Assembly: GCF_030013205.1 (NCBI RefSeq)
Contig: NZ_CP122648.1
DNA from: Escherichia coli
Lineage (GTDB): Bacteria > Pseudomonadota > Gammaproteobacteria > Enterobacterales > Enterobacteriaceae
Direction: 5' to 3' (one strand)
Length of the DNA: 64,000 nt
Shown in pieces: positions 1,426-47,885 of the stretch (its first letter is position 1; each line of letters opens with the position of its first letter). The notes beneath the pieces were generated by a model that saw nothing but the letters and a program-made list of their open reading frames with translations, had not been told where the DNA came from and did no database searches. The position numbers and the translations under genes are program-made.

Positions 1426-1498
1426 AAAAAGGCCACTCGTGAGTGGCCAAAATTTCATCTCTGAATTCAGGGATGATGATAACAAATGCGCGTCTTTC
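1426..1498 (-). ncRNA. micA: MicA (SraD) small RNA, antisense regulator of ompA/phoPQ mRNAs
   Basis: Minus-strand sequence reads GAAAGACGCGCATTTGTTATCATCATCCCTGAATTCAGAGATGAAATTTTGGCCACTCACGAGTGGCCTTTTT, which I recognise as MicA; sits in the gshA-luxS intergenic region with a terminal hairpin plus U-tract. Confidence 0.8.
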
Positions 1499-2139: not shown

Positions 2140-2822
2140 TTGTGCACAGAAAACCCCCAGCTAGGCTGGGGGTTCCGGAAAGCTTTCAGCTTTGAGCCAG
2201 TTATTAAAACCCCTTTTGATTTGTTAAAACACCTTGCGGTCTGGCAACTGCAAGTGTCAAACAAGAAATCAAAAGGGGGTCCCAATGGGGAACGAAAAGA
2301 GCTTAGCGCACACCCGATGGAACTGTAAATATCACATAGTTTTTGCGCCAAAATACCGAAGACAAGTGTTCTACAGAGAGAAGCGTAGAGCAATAGGCAG
2401 TATTTTGAGAAAGCTGTGTGAGTGGAAAAGCGTACGGATTCTGGAAGCTGAATGCTGTGCAGATCATATCCATATGCTTGTGGAGATCCCGCCCAAAATG
2501 AGCGTATCCGGCTTTATGGGATATCTGAAAGGGAAAAGCAGTCTGATGCTTTACGAGCAGTTTGGTGATTTGAAATTCAAATACAGGAACAGAGAGTTCT
2601 GGTGCAGAGGGTACTACGTCGATACGGTGGGTAAGAACACGGCGAAGATACAGGATTACATAAAGCACCAGCTTGAAGAGGATAAAATGGGAGAGCAGTT
2701 ATCGATTCCCTATCCGGGCAGCCCGTTTACGGGCCGTAAGTAACGAAGTTGGATGCAAATGTCAGATCGTGTGCGCCTGTTAGGGCGCGGCTGGTAAGAG
2801 AGCCTTATAGGCGCATTTGAAA
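2140..2822 (+). mobile_element. IS200-family insertion sequence (boundaries approximate)
   Basis: Left-end hairpin AAACCCCCAGCTAGGCTGGGGGTT, then a second stem-loop (CCCCTTTTGATTT…AAATCAAAAGGGGG) that sequesters the RBS, then an IS200 tnpA; lies between luxS and emrB, where I recall no IS in K-12. Confidence 0.7.
2285..2743 (+). CDS. tnpA: IS200/IS605-family Y1 transposase TnpA
   Basis: 152 aa from MGNEKSLAHTRWNCKYHIVFAPKYRR… with the HIHMLVEIPP HuH motif; near-identical to remembered IS200 TnpA. Confidence 0.9.
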   Translation: MGNEKSLAHTRWNCKYHIVFAPKYRRQVFYREKRRAIGSILRKLCEWKSVRILEAECCADHIHMLVEIPPKMSVSGFMGYLKGKSSLMLYEQFGDLKFKYRNREFWCRGYYVDTVGKNTAKIQDYIKHQLEEDKMGEQLSIPYPGSPFTGRK

Positions 2823-4412: not shown

Positions 4413-5585
4413 TTAGCCAGCGTTAGCTTTTACGATATCGTCGATCAGTTTATTGACAGGTGCCAGGCTGATTTCACGCGCGGTGCTTACCGCTACCGGT
4501 GTGGAACGTACTTTATTTGCCAGTACCTGACCGTCACGGTTAGTGGTATTGACGCTCACCAGCGTGGACAAACCGATACGCAGCGGGTATTGCTCGAGCT
4601 GTTTCTGGTCCAGTTCAATACGAACAGGCAGACGCTGAACGACTTTGATCCAGTTACCGGTCGCATTTTGCGCCGGAAGCAGTGAGAACGCGCTACCTGT
4701 GCCCATATCCAGACCAACCACTTTACCGGTGTATTTCACATCATCGCCGTAAATATCCGTGGTGATAGTGACCGGCTGACCGATACGCATATTGGCAATC
4801 TGCGTCTCTTTAAAGTTGGCATCCACCCACATATTGGTGGCTGGAACGACCGCCATCAGCGGCGTCGTTGGGCTAATTTGTGCCCCAGGCTGTACCGCGC
4901 GGCGGGAGACATAACCGGTCATCGGACTGACAATACGAGTACGCTCCAGCGCCAGCCAGGCGTTACGTACTTCGGTGGCAGCCTGTTGCACGGCAGGCTG
5001 ATCTTCCAGTTTAGTCCCCAGAATCATCGCCTGATTGGCATTGTATTGTTGAATAGCGACGTCCAGTTGTGCCTGGGCACTGGTGACGGCGTCGCGGGCG
5101 TGTTGCAGCTCTTCGCGACCAATCAGGTTGGCATTGCCCAGCGGCACACGGCGGTTGTAGTCGCTTTGTGCTTTCGCGAGGGCGATTTTTTGCACCTCAA
5201 TATTCGCCTGCAACTGTTTGCTGTTAATCATCAGCTGGTGGGTTTGGCGAACGCTTGAAGCCAGTGCAGTTTTGGCTTTTTCAAACGCCTGGCGAGCATC
5301 TGTCGGGTCGAGAGTGACCAGCACGTCGCCTTCTTTTACAAAATCGGTGTTATCGGCCCAGACTTTCGTCACGCTGCCAGACACCTGAGACATAATTTGA
5401 ATCTGATTCCCTGCCACGTATGCGTCATCGGTTTCTTCGAAATGACGCAGTACTAAAAACCAATAAATCCCTATCGCTACGGCAATAATTATAAAGAGCA
5501 AGGTGAGAAGGAGGAGCAGACGCTTACGTTTGCCGCTCTTCTTTACCGGTTGCTGCGGGGTTTGAGTCTCCGCATTTGCGCTCAT
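4413..5585 (-). CDS. emrA: Multidrug efflux membrane fusion protein EmrA
   Basis: 390 aa from MSANAETQTPQQPVKKSGKRKR…; HlyD-like periplasmic adaptor; conserved emrRAB order. Confidence 0.95.
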   Translation of the reverse strand: MSANAETQTPQQPVKKSGKRKRLLLLLTLLFIIIAVAIGIYWFLVLRHFEETDDAYVAGNQIQIMSQVSGSVTKVWADNTDFVKEGDVLVTLDPTDARQAFEKAKTALASSVRQTHQLMINSKQLQANIEVQKIALAKAQSDYNRRVPLGNANLIGREELQHARDAVTSAQAQLDVAIQQYNANQAMILGTKLEDQPAVQQAATEVRNAWLALERTRIVSPMTGYVSRRAVQPGAQISPTTPLMAVVPATNMWVDANFKETQIANMRIGQPVTITTDIYGDDVKYTGKVVGLDMGTGSAFSLLPAQNATGNWIKVVQRLPVRIELDQKQLEQYPLRIGLSTLVSVNTTNRDGQVLANKVRSTPVAVSTAREISLAPVNKLIDDIVKANAG

Positions 5586-5712
5586 ATTGTTCTCCACGAT
5601 CTTCTTAACTCATCGGCTGAGCCGACCTGCTTGCCAAAAAAGGCCAGCATGTTGCGATGCTGGCCAGTCATTTTTTCTTTTATAAATCTGGATTTTTGAG
5701 CGAGATGACGCG

Positions 5713-6243
5713 TTAGCTCATCGCTTCGAGAACCACACCGTCTTGTTCCATCTGGTCGAGACGGGAGAGCAATTTGCGGGTGATTTGCTCGAGCTGATCT
5801 TTTTCTGTTGTGCTGAGCGCGGACCAGAGTTGATGCAGGCAGTTATGCTGCGGTGGTAAAACCTCGCGCAAAAACTCGTGACCTTTTTCCGTTAATTGCA
5901 GATGCAGGCAGCGGCGATCGTTATCGCTTTCACGACGTTCGATCCAACCGCGTTTTTCCAGTTCATCGGCAATACGCGTCGCGTTGGTACGGGATGATCC
6001 AAGAGCACAACTCAATTCAGAAGGCTGAATACTGTGGTTTTCCTGAGACTCCAGCGTAATCAACGCCATAAACAACGTCTCGTTAATCCCCTGAGCCTTC
6101 AGCATTTTATTGCGGTTCTCCAGCAGCTTGCTTTGCATGTGCATGCAAAGACGAGTCAGAAGGATCTCCTGATAAGGAAAATCTTCGTGGCGGCTGGCGC
6201 GAAATTTTAGCATTTGTTCAATGGGCGTAAACGAACTATCCAT
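5713..6243 (-). CDS. mprA: MarR-family repressor of emrAB (EmrR/MprA)
   Basis: 176 aa, MarR winged helix; sequence matches remembered MprA. Confidence 0.95.
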
Positions 6244-6333: not shown

Positions 6334-6669
6334 TTATATAATCGCCATCACTTTCCAGGCGAGCCCGTAGGCCAGCGCACTAAGCAGTGTTGGGATGATA
6401 ATGCTGCGTGTTTTATAGAAACTGGCACCCAGTACCGCGAAGCCGACCAGCGTGGGCACGAAACGGCGTGTATCGTGCATCACTTCTGGTGCGGTAGAGA
6501 CAACCAGCAGAGCGCATATCGAGGCGATGCCAATGGTGTCGAGCAAAATACCTACCGCGCCACGTTTGGTTGGGCGGGCATTACCCACACGCAGGCGCAG
6601 CGGCAAATAGCGGAAGCAATAATTCGCCGCGCCAACCAGTAACCCAAGCAGCAGAACCTCATAGCTCAT
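6334..6669 (-). CDS. ygaH: L-valine exporter small subunit (AzlD family)
   Basis: 111 aa hydrophobic protein; overlaps ygaZ stop; conserved synteny. Confidence 0.9.
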
Positions 6670-7396
6670 CGGGCGCTCCTTGCCAGAATGCCTGGATTAA
6701 CGCAGTGAGGCAGCCACAGACAATGCCTGCCAGAATGGCGACGGGAATAGAAAATAGCGTTACGCCTGCAAGGGCACCAACTAACGCTGCGGTAACGCAA
6801 AGAGATTGTTTGCGCTGGAAAGAGGCGAGCAGGAAACTCATAAAGAGTGCCGGAAGCATAAAACCTAATGCTGCTTCAACGGCGGGATATCCTTGCAGCA
6901 AGCCGCTGCCGGAGAATGCCCCTATTACCGTACCAAATACCCACGATGACCATGAACTGAAGGCAATGCCGATCATCCAGTTCTCGCTCCAGCGGCGATT
7001 ATTGCGTACCAGTTTTGCGGTTGCGGCGGCAAAAACCTCATCCGTCAGGCCAAATGCCCACAGGGCGGTTTTCGATTTTTGCAGACGCTGAATAATACGG
7101 CTACGCAGTGACGGGCCATACAAAACATGGCGAACATCCATTGCCATGACGGTCAGTGCAGCAACCCACAAACTACTCCCGGCTGCCAGCATCGCGGTAA
7201 TGACGAACTGGCTCGCGCCTGCATAAATGATGCAGGAGAAAAAAACGCTTTCGAGAGGAGAGAATCCCAGACGGGTCGCATTCAGACCGAACGCAAAGGC
7301 CACCGGAATATAACTAATAACAATCGGTAAACTGTCTTTGCATCCTTCCATGAAGGTCGCCGAACCAGGAGCAGGCTGTGGAGTAGGGCTTTCCAT
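6659..7396 (-). CDS. ygaZ: L-valine exporter large subunit (AzlC family)
   Basis: 245 aa polytopic membrane protein; conserved synteny with ygaH. Confidence 0.9.
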
Positions 7397-7519
7397 AGAG
7401 TGTACGCTTAACGATTGTTAATATTATAAATAGACTGAATGAATATCTTAACCTTATCAGACTGATGGGCTTCTTAACACCCTTATAAGTGTAAAGCCAC
7501 GAAAACGGTTGCTGATTGC

Positions 7520-8704
7520 TTAATTTGCGGCTTCCTGACGATGAAAACCTCGCCACCAGACCAGTAAGTTAACCAGGGCAATCGTCGCGCCAGCCAGACA
7601 AACGCCAGCCCAACCGCCATGTTGCCAGGCTGAGGCTGAAATTAGCGAACCGGCGGCACCGCCAATAAAGTAGCTGGTCATGTAACCTGCGGTCAGGCGA
7701 TTACGCGCATCAGGATGTATTCGATAAATTACCGTCTGGTTAGTGATATGCACGCCCTGCACGGTGAGGTCCAGCACCAGGATGCCGATAATCAGCGCCA
7801 GTACGGAAGTGTGACCAAACCAGATTGCCAGCCATGAAAGTAACAGCAGAAGCAGACCGAAAGTTGTTGTGTGGTGCGATTTGCCCTTGTCGGCAAAACC
7901 GCCCGCCGGACGAGCGCCCAACGCTCCGGCAGCTCCCGCAAGTCCAAACAGACCAATTACACCATCGCTGTAGTTAAAAGGTGGAGCGGCAAGCAAAAAG
8001 GCCATTGAGGTCCAGAGAATGCTGAAGTTGGCAAAGGTCAGGCAGCCCAGCAACGCGCGGGTGCGCAGAATTTTATCGCTGATAAACATGCTGAAAACGG
8101 AACCAAGCAACTGTGGGTAGTTGAGGTGGGTTTCTGATTTCATTTGTGGCAGACCACGCCATAATGCCAGCGCCATCAGTGCCATTAACACCGAGGCAAC
8201 CCAAAAGACGGTGCGCCAGCCGCCGAGGTTTGCCAGCAACCCGGCAACGGTTCGTGCCAGCAAGATCCCCAACAGCAGCCCGCTCATAATGGTGCCGACC
8301 ACTTTGCCGCGTTTGTCTGGTGAAGCCAGCGTCGCTGCCAGCGGAACCAGAATTTGTGCCACGACCGAGAATAAACCGGTCAATGCCGTACCGAGGATCA
8401 TCATCGCCAGCGACTGACTGCTGGCAGTAATTAACATGCCGCCTGCCGCCAGTAAGGTCATCGAGACAATCAGGCGGCGACGTTCAAACATATCACCGAG
8501 GGGAACAAGAAACAGCAGACCTGCGGCATAGCCCAACTGTGCGGCGGTAACAATAAAGCCTGCCGAACTGGCGGAAAGGGAAAAGTTACGCGCGATGGTG
8601 TCGAGCAATGGCTGGGCGTAATAGTTACTGGCTACCGCCAGACCGGTGGCGATAGACATCAGCACGATCAGCGCCGGGCTAAGCTCATGATTAGGTTTAG
8701 TCAT
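7520..8704 (-). CDS. ygaY: MFS transporter YgaY (intact here)
   Basis: 394 aa 12-TMS MFS-type ORF between ygaZ and proX. Confidence 0.8.
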   Translation of the reverse strand: MTKPNHELSPALIVLMSIATGLAVASNYYAQPLLDTIARNFSLSASSAGFIVTAAQLGYAAGLLFLVPLGDMFERRRLIVSMTLLAAGGMLITASSQSLAMMILGTALTGLFSVVAQILVPLAATLASPDKRGKVVGTIMSGLLLGILLARTVAGLLANLGGWRTVFWVASVLMALMALALWRGLPQMKSETHLNYPQLLGSVFSMFISDKILRTRALLGCLTFANFSILWTSMAFLLAAPPFNYSDGVIGLFGLAGAAGALGARPAGGFADKGKSHHTTTFGLLLLLLSWLAIWFGHTSVLALIIGILVLDLTVQGVHITNQTVIYRIHPDARNRLTAGYMTSYFIGGAAGSLISASAWQHGGWAGVCLAGATIALVNLLVWWRGFHRQEAAN

Positions 8705-9156
8705 TATTTTTGTTCATCAGGTGATGATTAAGCTGGAAATCAATAATAGCGGATGTTGATGAATGTGGGGCGAAAGATAGATTGTTAAAATGTGCGGGTA
8801 ATGGGGAGAGGGTATTTGAAGGTGAAATATGCCACTAAGGCAAATGTTACGTTCACTTCCAGACTATAGCTACTTTGTCACTATTTTGCTGGTGAACGTG
8901 CCAGGGTGGCTCAGTCGCCACCACCCTGGCGACCCAGGCTTTTGGCACAAAATCGCCGCTACGCGGTACATTCGACTTATTTCTTACGGCTATCGGGTAC
9001 GGGCGCGAGGTAACATCCCTGTAAGACGCGCCCTCGCCGCGCATCCCTGCGCGTCGCCCCGGCCTTCAGAAAACGTCTCATCGATTTTCAGCCGGATTAA
9101 AACCATCGCTGCAATTGTTTTACTCACATGAGCATTATCTGCGCGGTTATCAATAT

Positions 9157-10149
9157 TTACTTCTGCGCTGCCAGCGCCTCATTCACCCAGCCATCGAACT
9201 GCTGCTGGTGGGCTTTGATCCAACCATCAACGTGGCCCTGAATATCGCCTTCTGAGGCTTTGCCTTCATGCATAATGGCGTTCTGGGCGTTAATATCTGC
9301 CACTGGCAACTGCATAATGGCAAACAGTTTGGCTGCCGCCGGATTTTTCTCGGCCCAGGCTTTGTTGGCAACGATATGCATGGTACTGACCGGGAAGCCG
9401 TAATTCGCGCCATTCGGCAGTTTGGTATCGGCATTTTTATCGCCCGGCAGTGCGGAGAACGGCACCTGCAACCAGACCACATCTTTCCCCGGTTTCAGTT
9501 CGTTACTCACCCAGTACGGCGTCCAGGTGTAGTAAAACACCGGCTTACCCTCTTTGTAACGACTGATGGTGTCAGCCATCATCGCTGCGTAGTTCCCCTG
9601 ATTATGCGTCACGGTATTGGTCAGTCCATACGCGGCAAGCTGGTGGTTGATCGCACCTTCGCAGCCCCAGCCTGGGTTACAGCCGGTTAAATCCGCTTTA
9701 CCGTCGCCGTTGGTATCGAACAGTTTGGCGATCTTCGGATCTTTAAGTTGCGCGATGTTGGTGATTTTGTACTGGTCGGCGGTTTTCTTATCGATCAGGT
9801 AACCCTGTGCCGCGCCGTTAACGAATACCCCTTCACGATAAAATTTCTTATCGCCACCGGCAGCTTCGTACATGTTGTCATGCAGCGGCGTCCAGTTCAC
9901 GGCGGTGAAGGTTGCATCGCCGGAAGCAAGCGAGGTGTAGCCAACGTTGTAATCCACTTCGCTGGGTTTATTGACGGTATAACCTAATTTCTCCAGTGCA
10001 CGACTGACCAGCAGCGTCTGGAAGGTTTCTTCAGTGATGGTGCTCTGAACTGGATTAACAGTAATGCCTTTGCCCGGCAGATCGGCAGCAAAAGTTTGTG
10101 TAGAGATAAGCGTGGCAAACGCTGTCGCAAAAAGTACGCTATGTCGCAT
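9157..10149 (-). CDS. proX: Glycine betaine/proline ABC transporter periplasmic binding protein
   Basis: 330 aa from [21 protein letters not shown] (signal peptide); ORF track extends 14 codons upstream. Confidence 0.95.
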
Positions 10150-10206
10150 TGTTATTCCTTTTTTTGGCAGGGTGATAATGCCCGGCGTCACCGGGCAAGT
10201 GCAGAG

Positions 10207-11271
10207 TTACTTAATGAATGGGCGGGTCAGCAGACCGACAGGGCCAGTGGTGTACCAGCGACGGTTGCCGCGACTGCGTGAGTCGCGCCCAACGGCCTGC
10301 GTCAGACGGTCGAGGATAATGGCGAGGATCACAATCCCGACGCCGCCAACGGTGGCAAGCCCCATATCCAGACGACCGATACCGCGAAGTACCATCTGAC
10401 CCAGCCCGCCGACGGCAATCATCGAGGCGATGACCACCATAGAAAGGGCCAGCATCAGCGTCTGGTTAACGCCCGCCATAATGGTTGGCATCGCCAGCGG
10501 TAACTGAACTTTGAACAGCATCTGGCGCGGGCTGGCACCGAATGAGCGCGAGGCTTCAATCAGATCCGCCGGAACCTGGTTAATTCCCAGAATCGTCAGA
10601 CGGATAATCGGCGGCAGCGCAAAGATGATCGTCACCACCACGCCCGGCACGTTGCCGATACCAAACAGCATGACGATTGGCACCAGATAAACAAACGCGG
10701 GCGTGGTCTGCATGGCATCAAGTAGTGGACGAATAATTTTCGCCGCTCGCGGACTTCTCGCTAGCCAGATCCCCAACGGCAAACCTATGACGATACAGAA
10801 CAGCAGGGCTGTTAACACCAGCGCCAGGGTAACCATTGCCTGTGACCAGGCACCGATTGCGCCGATGGCAATCAGCGAAACCAGCGTCGCCACGCCCATT
10901 CCGACCCCGGAAATCTGCCAGGCGATGAGAGCGAAAACGATAATCGCCACTGGCGCTGGCATACCCAGCAGCAATTGCTGGAAACCGTTGAGGATATAAT
11001 CAACCGGAACGCGCACGCCCTGGAAGACGGGACGGAAATGGGTAACGACCCAGTCGATCCCTTCAGTGACCCAACTGTCGAGCGGGATCAGCGTTTTATG
11101 GAACGGATCGAGAATATTAAAATGCTCGACGTTTGGCGCAGGCGTACTGGTCAGCCAGTCAGCACCACCGCCGTCAGTCGGTGCAGCAGCCGGTGTACCC
11201 CAGGCGTCTGCGGACTGTGCGGCACTGTCCGCCGCTGGCGTGGTATCCCACGGATTATTTTGATCAGCCAT
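10207..11271 (-). CDS. proW: Glycine betaine/proline ABC transporter permease
   Basis: 354 aa; ABC permease signature; overlaps proV. Confidence 0.95.
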
Positions 11272-34877: not shown

Positions 34878-37800
34878 TCATTTTCCTAATTCTCCAGCTA
34901 AAAGTTCAGCCTGCTTCAAAACAGTCTCTGTGGCGAGCAATGACATATCAGGCGGATAACCATATTTTTTGAGCAGACGTTTTACCACCACGCGAATTTT
35001 TGCTCTTGCTGCTTCTTTCACTGTCCAGTCAAGACTGACATTGTTGCGGATAGCCTCCGTAAGTACGACTGCCAGTTCTCGTAGTTTTTCCTTTTCCATT
35101 AACTCGCGAGCACTGTCGTTATCTGCAACAGCAGAATAGAAGGCATATTCATAAGCGCTGAGGTTTAACTGGCTGGCAAGGCTGTCAGATTCCTGGATAG
35201 TCTTGGCAAGCTTGATTAGCTCATCAATTACCTCCGCTGCGGTCAGTACCTTGTTCTGGTAGCCATTGATTGCAGAGGTCAGCATATCAATCAGTTTTTT
35301 GCCTTGGGTGATACTTTGATTCGAGCGAACCTTGATCTCGTCAGAAAGCAGTTTTTTAAGCGTTTCCAAAGCAATATTTCTGTGTTGGTAATCCTTCATT
35401 TCCTGAAGGAATTCTTCAGAAAGAACGGAAATATCAGGTTTTTGTATCCCAGCAGCGTCAAAAATATCAACAACTTTATCGGTAACCAGAGCCTGATCGA
35501 TAGTCTGTTTTACCCGAACTTCGAGACTGTCATTGTGTTCTTCTTCTGATCCGTCTGAGTTTTCAGTAAATTTATTCAGTCTGGCTTTTACTGCCTGGAA
35601 GAATGCTACTTCGGGTGCCGCTTCCATTGCTTTATCGTGCGGTGTCGCCAATGCAAATGCCTGCGATAAGGCTGCAACCGCAGCGAGGAAACGCATTTTA
35701 CCTTTACCGTTATCCAGCCCTAAAATATGGTTTTCTGATTCAAGAATAATTGTCAGGCGTTGTGAGGTAGTTGCGGCAAAGTAAGCTTTGTAATCGTATC
35801 CATGCATCATGCCTTCCAGGATTTCCAGCTTTTCCTGCATGAGCGTTACGGCTTCTTCCTGAACCTCAGCAGGATCTCCACGTCCACCTGCATCAGAGTA
35901 AAAGGAGAGGGCTTCTTTTAAATCAGAGGCAATGCCCAGATAGTCAACAACCAGACCGCCTATCTTATCTTTATACACACGGTTCACACGGGCAATTGCC
36001 TGCATAAGGTTGTGGCCTTTCATTGGTTTGTCGATATACAGCGTATGCATGCTGGGAGCGTCGAAGCCGGTTAACCACATATCACGCACTATCACCAGTT
36101 TCAGCTTGTCGTCGTCATCCTTCATACGGTTAGCCAGAACCTGACGTTCTTTTTTTGTGGTGTGGTGTTTGGCAATTTCTGGCCCGTCAGCAGCAGAAGA
36201 GGTCATGACGACTTTTATTATACCGTCATTTAAATCATCGCTGTGCCATTCAGGTTTTAAGGCTATGATTTCTTTATATAGTTCAGCAGCAATACGGCGG
36301 GACATGGTAACAATCATGCCCTTACCATGATCGGCATTGGATTTTAAGCGCTGCTCAAAGTGCAGAACCATATCCGCCGCAATCGCTTTAATACGTTTTG
36401 AACTGCCAATCAAACCTTCGATTCTGGCCCATTTAGAACGTTCTTTTTGCGTGAGCGTCAGTTCGTCCTCGTTAAACTCATCATCAAAGTCTTCAATAAG
36501 CTGACGACCTTCATCACTGATGGCAATTTTGGCAAGACGGCTTTCATAAAAGATACGAACTGTTGCACCATCTTCAACGGCCTGCGAGATATCGTAGATA
36601 TCAACATAGTTACCAAAAACAGCAGGCGTGTTGACGTCCGTTTTTTCTATGGGGGTTCCGGTAAAGCCGAGATAGGTCGCATTAGGTAAGGCATCACGCA
36701 TATATTTGGCAAAGCCGTAAACGGTGCGTTTACCTGTTACGTTGCCTTCGCTGTCTTTCACGTCAACTTCTTTGGCGCTGAAACCGTACTGGGAACGGTG
36801 TGCTTCATCAGCGATAACGACAATATTGGTTCTGTCTGACAACAACTCATAGATATTGCTGCCATCATCAGGCTGGAATTTTTGAATAGTAGTAAACACC
36901 ACACCGCCAGAGGCGACACGCAAATATTCTTTGAGTTCTTCCCGGTTGTTGGCCTGTTTTGGTGTCTGACGAAGTAGCTGGGTCGCGGAAGAGAACGTAC
37001 CGAATAGCTGATCATCTAAGTCGTTACGGTCAGTAATCACAACAACTGTCGGATTATCCAGCGCCAGCACAATTTTCCCGGTATAAAACACCATCGAAAG
37101 CGATTTACCGGAACCCTGAGTATGCCAGACTACGCCCGCTTTGCGATCTCCGGTTTTTTGCGCATTAACAAGATCTTTACTGTTACGTCCCTGCTGGCGC
37201 AGTGCCACTTCGGCAGAGGGGGAGTCCGCATTCACCGCTGAGGCACGAATAGTGGAAAGAACTGCTGCATTGACCGCGTAGTACTGGTGATAAGCCGCCA
37301 TTTTTTAACAGTACGGATACTGATAATCCCTTTGCTGTCTTCATGTTTGCTGGCCTCAAACACGATAAAGTGGCGGATTATATCCAGCAGCGTTACAGGA
37401 TTAAGCAACCCCTGTAATAAAACTTCAAGCTGTGGTTGGGTACTGGTGGCTTGCGTTTTACCGTTAGCAGTTTTCCACGTCATATAACGACTGAAATCGG
37501 CAGAAACCGTCCCCGCTTTGGCTTCCAGCCCGTCAGATATCACATTAAAAGCATTGTAGTTAAACAGACCGGGGATTTGGTTCTGATAGGTTTTAATCTG
37601 ATTATAGGCACCTGTTACCGTTGCATTTTCGTCAGCGGCATTTTTAAGTTCGATAACGACTAATGGCAGGCCATTGATGAATAAAATAAGATCAGGTCGG
37701 CGGGTATGGTTGCCTTCTTTGATGGTGAGCTGATTAATGACCAGAAATGCATTATTAGTGGGATCGTTAAAGTCGATCAGGCTGGCCAGTTCTCCTTGTG

Positions 37801-47522: not shown

Positions 47523-47885
47523 TGGTGGAGCTGGCGGGAGTTGAACCCGCGTCCGAAATTCCTACGTCCTCGGTACTACATGCTTAGTCAGTCTTTACAT
47601 TCGCTTGCCAGCTGCGGACGGACACGCCACTAACAAACTAGCCTGATTAAGTTTTAACGCTTCAACCCCAGGCAGGGCTTCCACGCGATCTCTTTTGGGT
47701 TTGACCTCTCTTGATCCCCGTCCTAAGAGCGGAGGCTAGGGAGAGAGGGCTCTAAGCAGGTTATTAAGCTGCTAAAGCGTAGTTTTCGTCGTTTGCGACT
47801 ATTTTTTGCGGCTTTTTACGAGGCCAACCGCCCCTCGGCATGCACCTTGGGTTTCGCAAATCCCGTCGAATCCAGAATCAGCCCC
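47523..47885 (-). ncRNA. ssrA: tmRNA (SsrA, 10Sa RNA)
   Basis: Minus-strand sequence matches remembered E. coli tmRNA from GGGGCTGATTCTGGATTCGACGGG to …GCTCCACCA (363 nt). Confidence 0.95.

Follow-up and report, generated by a model that had tools for sequence, protein, structure and literature searches.

YgaY (P76628) is classified in TCDB as 2.A.1.36.3, within the YnfM family, and its function is listed there as 'unknown' (PMC5417439). In Escherichia coli K-12 the ygaY gene was described in a study of proVWX chromatin as cryptic and as carrying multiple in-frame stops (PMC10656529; bioRxiv 10.1101/2023.07.10.548347), its deletion has been used as a pseudogene control (bioRxiv 10.1101/072470), and it has served as a neutral site for chromosomal integration (PMC12134211). 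The pseudogene status of K-12 ygaY is already in the literature, and the difference between K-12 and the strain described here is real but ordinary. The reading which we hold with high confidence is that this strain carries a full-length, functional-looking ygaY whose product would, by analogy, act as an MFS exporter, and that the K-12 pseudogene reflects a recent loss, within the K-12 lineage, of a single 7-bp repeat unit.

The window analysed here is a stretch of 64,000 nucleotides of the E. coli contig NZ_CP122648.1. The listing of its open reading frames contains an uninterrupted, ATG-initiated ORF of 394 amino acids plus stop at 7520..8704 on the minus strand. A reading of the DNA made without database searches (the sequence-only reading) had called this an uninterrupted MFS-type ORF and had left its strand unstated; the call holds, with the ORF having exactly these limits and its product matching the Pfam profile MFS_1 (PF07690) at 142.2 bits (E 2.6e-41), far above the cut-off of 33.4. 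The match comes in two stretches, the best of which covers residues 17-289 of YgaY. E. coli CFSAN018748 carries the same 1185-bp CDS, annotated as 'MFS transporter' (WP_000165699.1), in a region 100% identical to the window. The assignment as ygaY CDS rests on the MFS_1 profile, the identity to an annotated CDS and synteny, and the ORF is a genuine gene, not a chance ORF.

Along the window the gene order is emrA (4413-5597), emrR/mprA (5713-6243), ygaH (6334-6669), ygaZ (6659-7396), ygaY, proX (9157-10191) and proW (10207-11271), all on the minus strand, which is the arrangement of the proVWX-ygaY-ygaZH-mprA-emrAB region of K-12 in reversed reading. Judged by its position between proX and ygaZ and by a nucleotide identity of ~96.5%, the window ORF is the orthologue of K-12 ygaY (b2681).

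In the K-12 MG1655 record NC_000913.3, ygaY is annotated as 'pseudogene' at 2808316..2809493 and measures 1178 bp, against 1185 bp in the window, and in one MG1655 derivative PGAP labels it 'frameshifted'. Global alignment of the two genes produced a single indel, the seven bases at gene positions 255-261 of the window copy being absent from K-12; the statement in the sequence-only reading that ygaY is a disrupted pseudogene in K-12 is thus borne out by the annotation, by the PGAP frameshift and by the 7-bp deletion in the alignment. Apart from the deletion, the 1178 aligned bases contain 35 substitutions in 34 codons, all of them synonymous, so that the K-12 copy is neither intact nor identical to that of the window. 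The deleted bases belong to a tandem heptamer, GGCGGCA GGCGGCA, which the alignment places at 8437..8450 (minus strand; gene positions 255-268, codons 85-90) in the predicted third transmembrane helix. Both units are kept in the window, where the K-12 deletion is absent and the frame is open. K-12 lacks one unit, with the result that its frame shifts and meets a stop at codon 89; beyond the deletion, the +2 frame of K-12 encodes exactly the window protein to its C-terminal end. At the deletion junction (around 5568-5580 of the K-12 record L002) the new TGA stop overlaps an in-frame ATG (GC ATG TTG A; GCATGTTGA), and the 305 codons downstream still match the intact protein, a layout which resembles termination and re-initiation.

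The distribution of the two states was examined in a set of 5426 complete E. coli genomes. The ygaY region was found in 5418 of these, with coverage of at least 80% in 5413 of the 5426 and identity of 95-100%. Gene length was read from 60 rows sampled across the whole ranking: 55 had 1185 bp, four had 1178 bp and one had a large deletion, and all four genes of 1178 bp belonged to K-12 derivatives. Such a length survey registers disruptions that are large or that alter the net length and is blind to nonsense mutations and to indels that compensate each other, and the fraction of intact frames outside K-12 is accordingly an estimate; the annotated CDS was intact in the non-K-12 genomes that were inspected. 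The sampled genome with the large deletion is that of strain PCP06021 (NZ_CM129877.1), one of few in which ygaY is mostly deleted; 158-250 bp are left adjoining ygaH, which implies that most of ygaY together with ygaZ has been lost.

The deletion allele was counted with a junction-specific 30-mer on the K-12 haplotype, shifted to the right in order to separate it from an allele with Cys at codon 88. It is present in exactly 353 of the 5426 genomes, and all 60 of the carriers sampled were K-12 laboratory derivatives, among them MG1655, BW25113, W3110-type strains, C600, J53, MC4100, JM109, TG1, S17-1, EPI300 and transconjugant recipients. On the haplotype that the window carries, this deletion was found in none of the 5426 genomes. 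A count of 1142 genomes obtained with a first junction probe was rejected, about two thirds of these matches being the intact Cys88 allele, which fits that probe at 28 of 30 bases; three of the matches that were fetched (E. coli C, 2009C-3133 and TOE17) each had an intact 1185-bp gene.

On the evidence of these genomes, intact ygaY is the norm of the species and its ancestral state, K-12 is the exception, and the 7-bp deletion belongs to the laboratory lineage of K-12 alone. The proposal of a strain-level difference in transporter repertoire stands in so far as the difference is real; it is not special to the strain sequenced here. Because the deletion is confined to the K-12 lineage, what separates the two is a loss in K-12 and no gain or retention peculiar to this strain.

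The haplotype on which the deletion arose can be approached through codon 88 (8441..8443, minus strand), which is GGC (Gly) in the window and has TGC (Cys) as a common alternative in the sequences of E. coli C, 2009C-3133 and TOE17. Gly88/Cys88 is a common polymorphism within helix 3 of YgaY: the window's exact 30-mer with GGC occurs in 1655 genomes, and the TGC form in roughly 780, a figure extrapolated from 41 of 60 sampled rows of the first-probe matches. The Cys88 allele turns the repeat into GCGGCAT GCGGCAT, and a perfect 7-bp tandem repeat is retained with either residue. K-12 shares the flanking SNPs of its ygaY with E. coli C and TOE17, and when GCGGCAT is restored the K-12 gene becomes identical at 1185 of 1185 positions to that of TOE17 (isolated from human faeces in Myanmar) and lies one nucleotide from that of E. 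coli C. The Cys88 haplotype is likely to have been the parent of the K-12 deletion, and the identity of the repaired gene to the TOE17 gene over all 1185 bp argues that the deletion is very recent and private to K-12. The repeat structure suggests replication slippage as the most plausible way in which one 7-bp unit was lost; this loss inside the third transmembrane helix shifts the frame and brings translation to an end at codon 89.

The flanks of the gene differ in how far they are shared. The region 5' of ygaY (8705..8796, minus strand) is, by alignment, common to essentially all E. coli, and most genomes align to window:7400-8830:- from query base 34/35 onward. The adjoining part of the proX-ygaY spacer (8797..9156, minus strand) varies between strains, with ~360 bp in the window where K-12 and E. 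coli C have a REP-like stretch of ~107 bp; the whole spacer measures 452 bp in the window against 191 bp in K-12 (L002:5126-5316) and E. coli C. A promoter scan of 8705..8796 found no strong sigma-70 consensus upstream of ygaY, and a scan of 7300-9300 for promoters and terminators returned sites no more numerous than in shuffled sequence. On the other side, the ygaY-ygaZ spacer (7397..7519, minus strand) holds a promoter-like TTAAGA-17-TATAAT at 7451..7423 which could serve ygaZH, a consensus-scan candidate in a region whose site count equals that of the shuffles.

The want of a strong promoter consensus upstream would suit a different reading, in which the intact ORF is itself decaying or silent and has merely escaped disruption so far, so that the strains would not truly differ in their working transporters. 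It would suit this reading too that the K-12 locus is H-NS-associated and weakly transcribed (PMC10656529; bioRxiv 10.1101/2023.07.10.548347) and that K-12 is viable without ygaY, a deletion of the gene having been used as a neutral control (bioRxiv 10.1101/072470). The pattern of substitution is hard to reconcile with decay, however, as 34 synonymous codon differences are set against 0-1 amino-acid changes, and among divergent intact alleles a pS of 0.06-0.11 and a pN of 0.002-0.003 give a pN/pS of about 0.02-0.04; in addition, almost all of 5413 genomes, from different lineages, carry the gene at full length. A silent gene strikes us as very improbable. That intact ygaY is maintained is the reading which these values favour, and they indicate strong, sustained purifying selection on it; G88C is the only residue change that separates the window protein from that of the TOE17/K-12 haplotype.

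Less probable again is that ygaY is still alive in K-12, with termination and re-initiation yielding two polypeptides (residues 1-88 and 90-394) that together form a split transporter. The reading frames would allow it, as frame 0 ends ...AAC* and frame 2 restarts MLITASS... and from there equals the intact protein, but the break would cut predicted helix 3 (residues 78-94) through its middle, and for this reason a split transporter is unlikely. Moreover, the transcript level falls along the downstream part of the gene in K-12 (PMC10656529; bioRxiv 10.1101/2023.07.10.548347), and curators and users alike regard K-12 ygaY as non-functional. That the K-12 'pseudogene' is an artefact of assembly or annotation, or that a deleted ancestor reverted to give the intact gene of the window, can be dismissed almost entirely, since the identical 7-bp deletion recurs in 353 complete assemblies, made by many laboratories and with many technologies from K-12 derivatives, the intact state occurs on every haplotype and in every lineage, and none of the genomes searched has the deletion on the haplotype of the window. 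The explanation that we retain is that the K-12 lineage, starting from an intact ancestor, lost one repeat unit.

Of the 11 clear peaks in a crude hydropathy scan of YgaY, six precede residue 181 and five follow residue 224; a weaker hydrophobic stretch, judged by eye and unscored, lies near residues 335-355. Full-length alignment to 12-helix relatives agrees with the hydropathy; the protein most likely has 12 helices, in a pattern consistent with a 6+6 MFS topology, and the site of the K-12 deletion falls within predicted helix 3, at residues 78-94. A sequence like MFS motif A (G-x-L-a-D-r-x-G-r-k-x-x-l) is read in the translation between helices 2 and 3 as L69-G-D-M-F-E-R-R-R-L78, with the Asp and the basic cluster kept and the second Gly replaced by Glu. 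In a BLASTP comparison YgaY aligns to K-12 YnfM over its full length (26% identity over 409 columns, E 2e-20). No NCBIfam equivalog reached its cut-off for YgaY; the best full-length NCBIfam matches were to sugar efflux PRK03545 (E 1.4e-17) and to drug exporters of the Cmx/Bcr type, and the nearest solved structures in a PDB sequence search were distant (GlcP 4lds, E 3e-8; SotB 6kki, E 5e-4). With no equivalog at its cut-off and only distant relatives in the PDB, no substrate can be inferred. These matches suggest a DHA1-like exporter fold, and by analogy with its sugar and drug efflux relatives in the MFS, YgaY, an inner-membrane transporter, would most likely export some small molecule in a proton-coupled manner.

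The strain-variable part of the proX-ygaY spacer contains a structured, dispersed element of ~205 nt (8893..9097, minus strand), whose putative structure consists of an outer stem, a pair of adjoining hairpins with loops of the GGAU type and a further hairpin on the 3' side. By sensitive blastn, copies of the element occur in 5425 of the 5426 genomes, at a median of three places and up to ten, with seven in CFSAN018748; the full-length spacer segment is present at the proX-ygaY site in 547 of the 5426. Other sites are yegH-asmA, lysO-aqpZ (which is occupied in K-12 too), dusC-yohP and efeU-putP, and none of the 40 records listed carried an annotation of the element. At dusC-yohP the element lies in opposite orientations in CH4790 and MS20659 (L012:1490-1758 and L016, respectively; 88% identity) with collinear flanks, which suggests independent insertion or inversion. 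Klebsiella copies have 84-87% identity (a single record of 5.4 Mb holds as many as 13) and Citrobacter copies 75%; a search pattern with six N (GGCCGGGGCNNNNNNNNNGGATGNNNNNNGAGGGCGCG) matched one viral contig (L018). The element may correspond to 'RSA', a repeat of 152 bp described in E. coli surveys of the 1990s, and a search of the literature for a published name gave nothing usable.

In an alignment of eight copies, 67 consensus pairs were counted, 14 of them with compensatory double changes. Three copies scored 28.2 (the window copy), 31.5 and 30.6 bits with the Rfam model TwoAYGGAY (RF01731), model positions 1-168 being covered each time; with a gathering threshold of 43 this is a resemblance and not an assignment. 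TwoAYGGAY is itself described as an orphan 'probable RNA' without a stated function (PMC2864571). There is a slim chance that the element belongs to a mobile family of structured RNAs akin to TwoAYGGAY, so far unannotated and spread across the Enterobacteriaceae, and that its insertion between proX and ygaY, present in about 10% of E. coli, could alter the formation of the proVWX 3' end or the expression of intact ygaY. Alternatively, the element may simply be an old, functionless 'RSA' DNA repeat.

Elsewhere in the window, Rfam models scored above threshold for MicA (1427-1498, minus strand), STnc490 (2152-2275, plus strand) and tmRNA (ssrA; 47523-47885, minus strand). About 39 kb separate ssrA from ygaY here; on the K-12 map ssrA lies at about 2,755 kb, ~53 kb from ygaY, so that the gene content beside ssrA may not be the same as in K-12. 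Two IS1-like direct repeats (32273-33040 and 34112-34880) are 90-96% identical over blocks of 250-300 nt and ~1.8 kb apart, and an ORF for an IS1 transposase occupies 32523-33026. The ORF flanked by the two repeats encodes ankyrin repeats (33037-33648, minus strand), and the second copy is abutted by an 807-aa ORF resembling a type I restriction R subunit (34878-37301, minus strand), which may be N-terminally truncated.

Although the loss of ygaY in K-12 is of little significance for biology at large, it makes K-12 an unfaithful reference for the transporter repertoire of E. coli. As ygaY is dead in K-12, the neutrality of its deletion there, or its use as a 'safe' integration site, is uninformative for strains that carry an intact gene under purifying selection. 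The lesion being exactly one 7-bp unit, ygaY could easily be restored in K-12 in order to probe its transport.

Among the systems already described, the window gene resembles the intact, annotated MFS transporter CDSs of E. coli C, TOE17 and 2009C-3133 (WP_081508785.1, WP_000165680.1 and WP_000165685.1), which have equal length and the same locus and differ by Cys88 for Gly88 and by 19-35 synonymous differences. K-12 ygaY (b2681; UniProt P76628; TCDB 2.A.1.36.3) shares the proX-ygaZ locus and, in its downstream frame, encodes an identical protein, but it is one 7-bp unit short (1178 vs 1185 bp), stops at codon 89 and is a pseudogene. YnfM (K-12 b1596), the founder of the TCDB 2.A.1.36 'acriflavin-sensitivity' family, aligns with YgaY from end to end and both have the MFS architecture; it differs in being a distant paralogue at another locus, where it adjoins the LysR-type regulator ynfL. 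To SotB-type sugar efflux proteins (PDB 6kki; PRK03545) and to the Bcr/CflA or Cmx drug exporters, YgaY gives profile matches that span its full length but are weak (E 1.4e-17 to 2e-13) and all lie far under the curated cut-offs; as the equivalog thresholds are not reached, YgaY does not belong to the SotB, Bcr/CflA or Cmx families.
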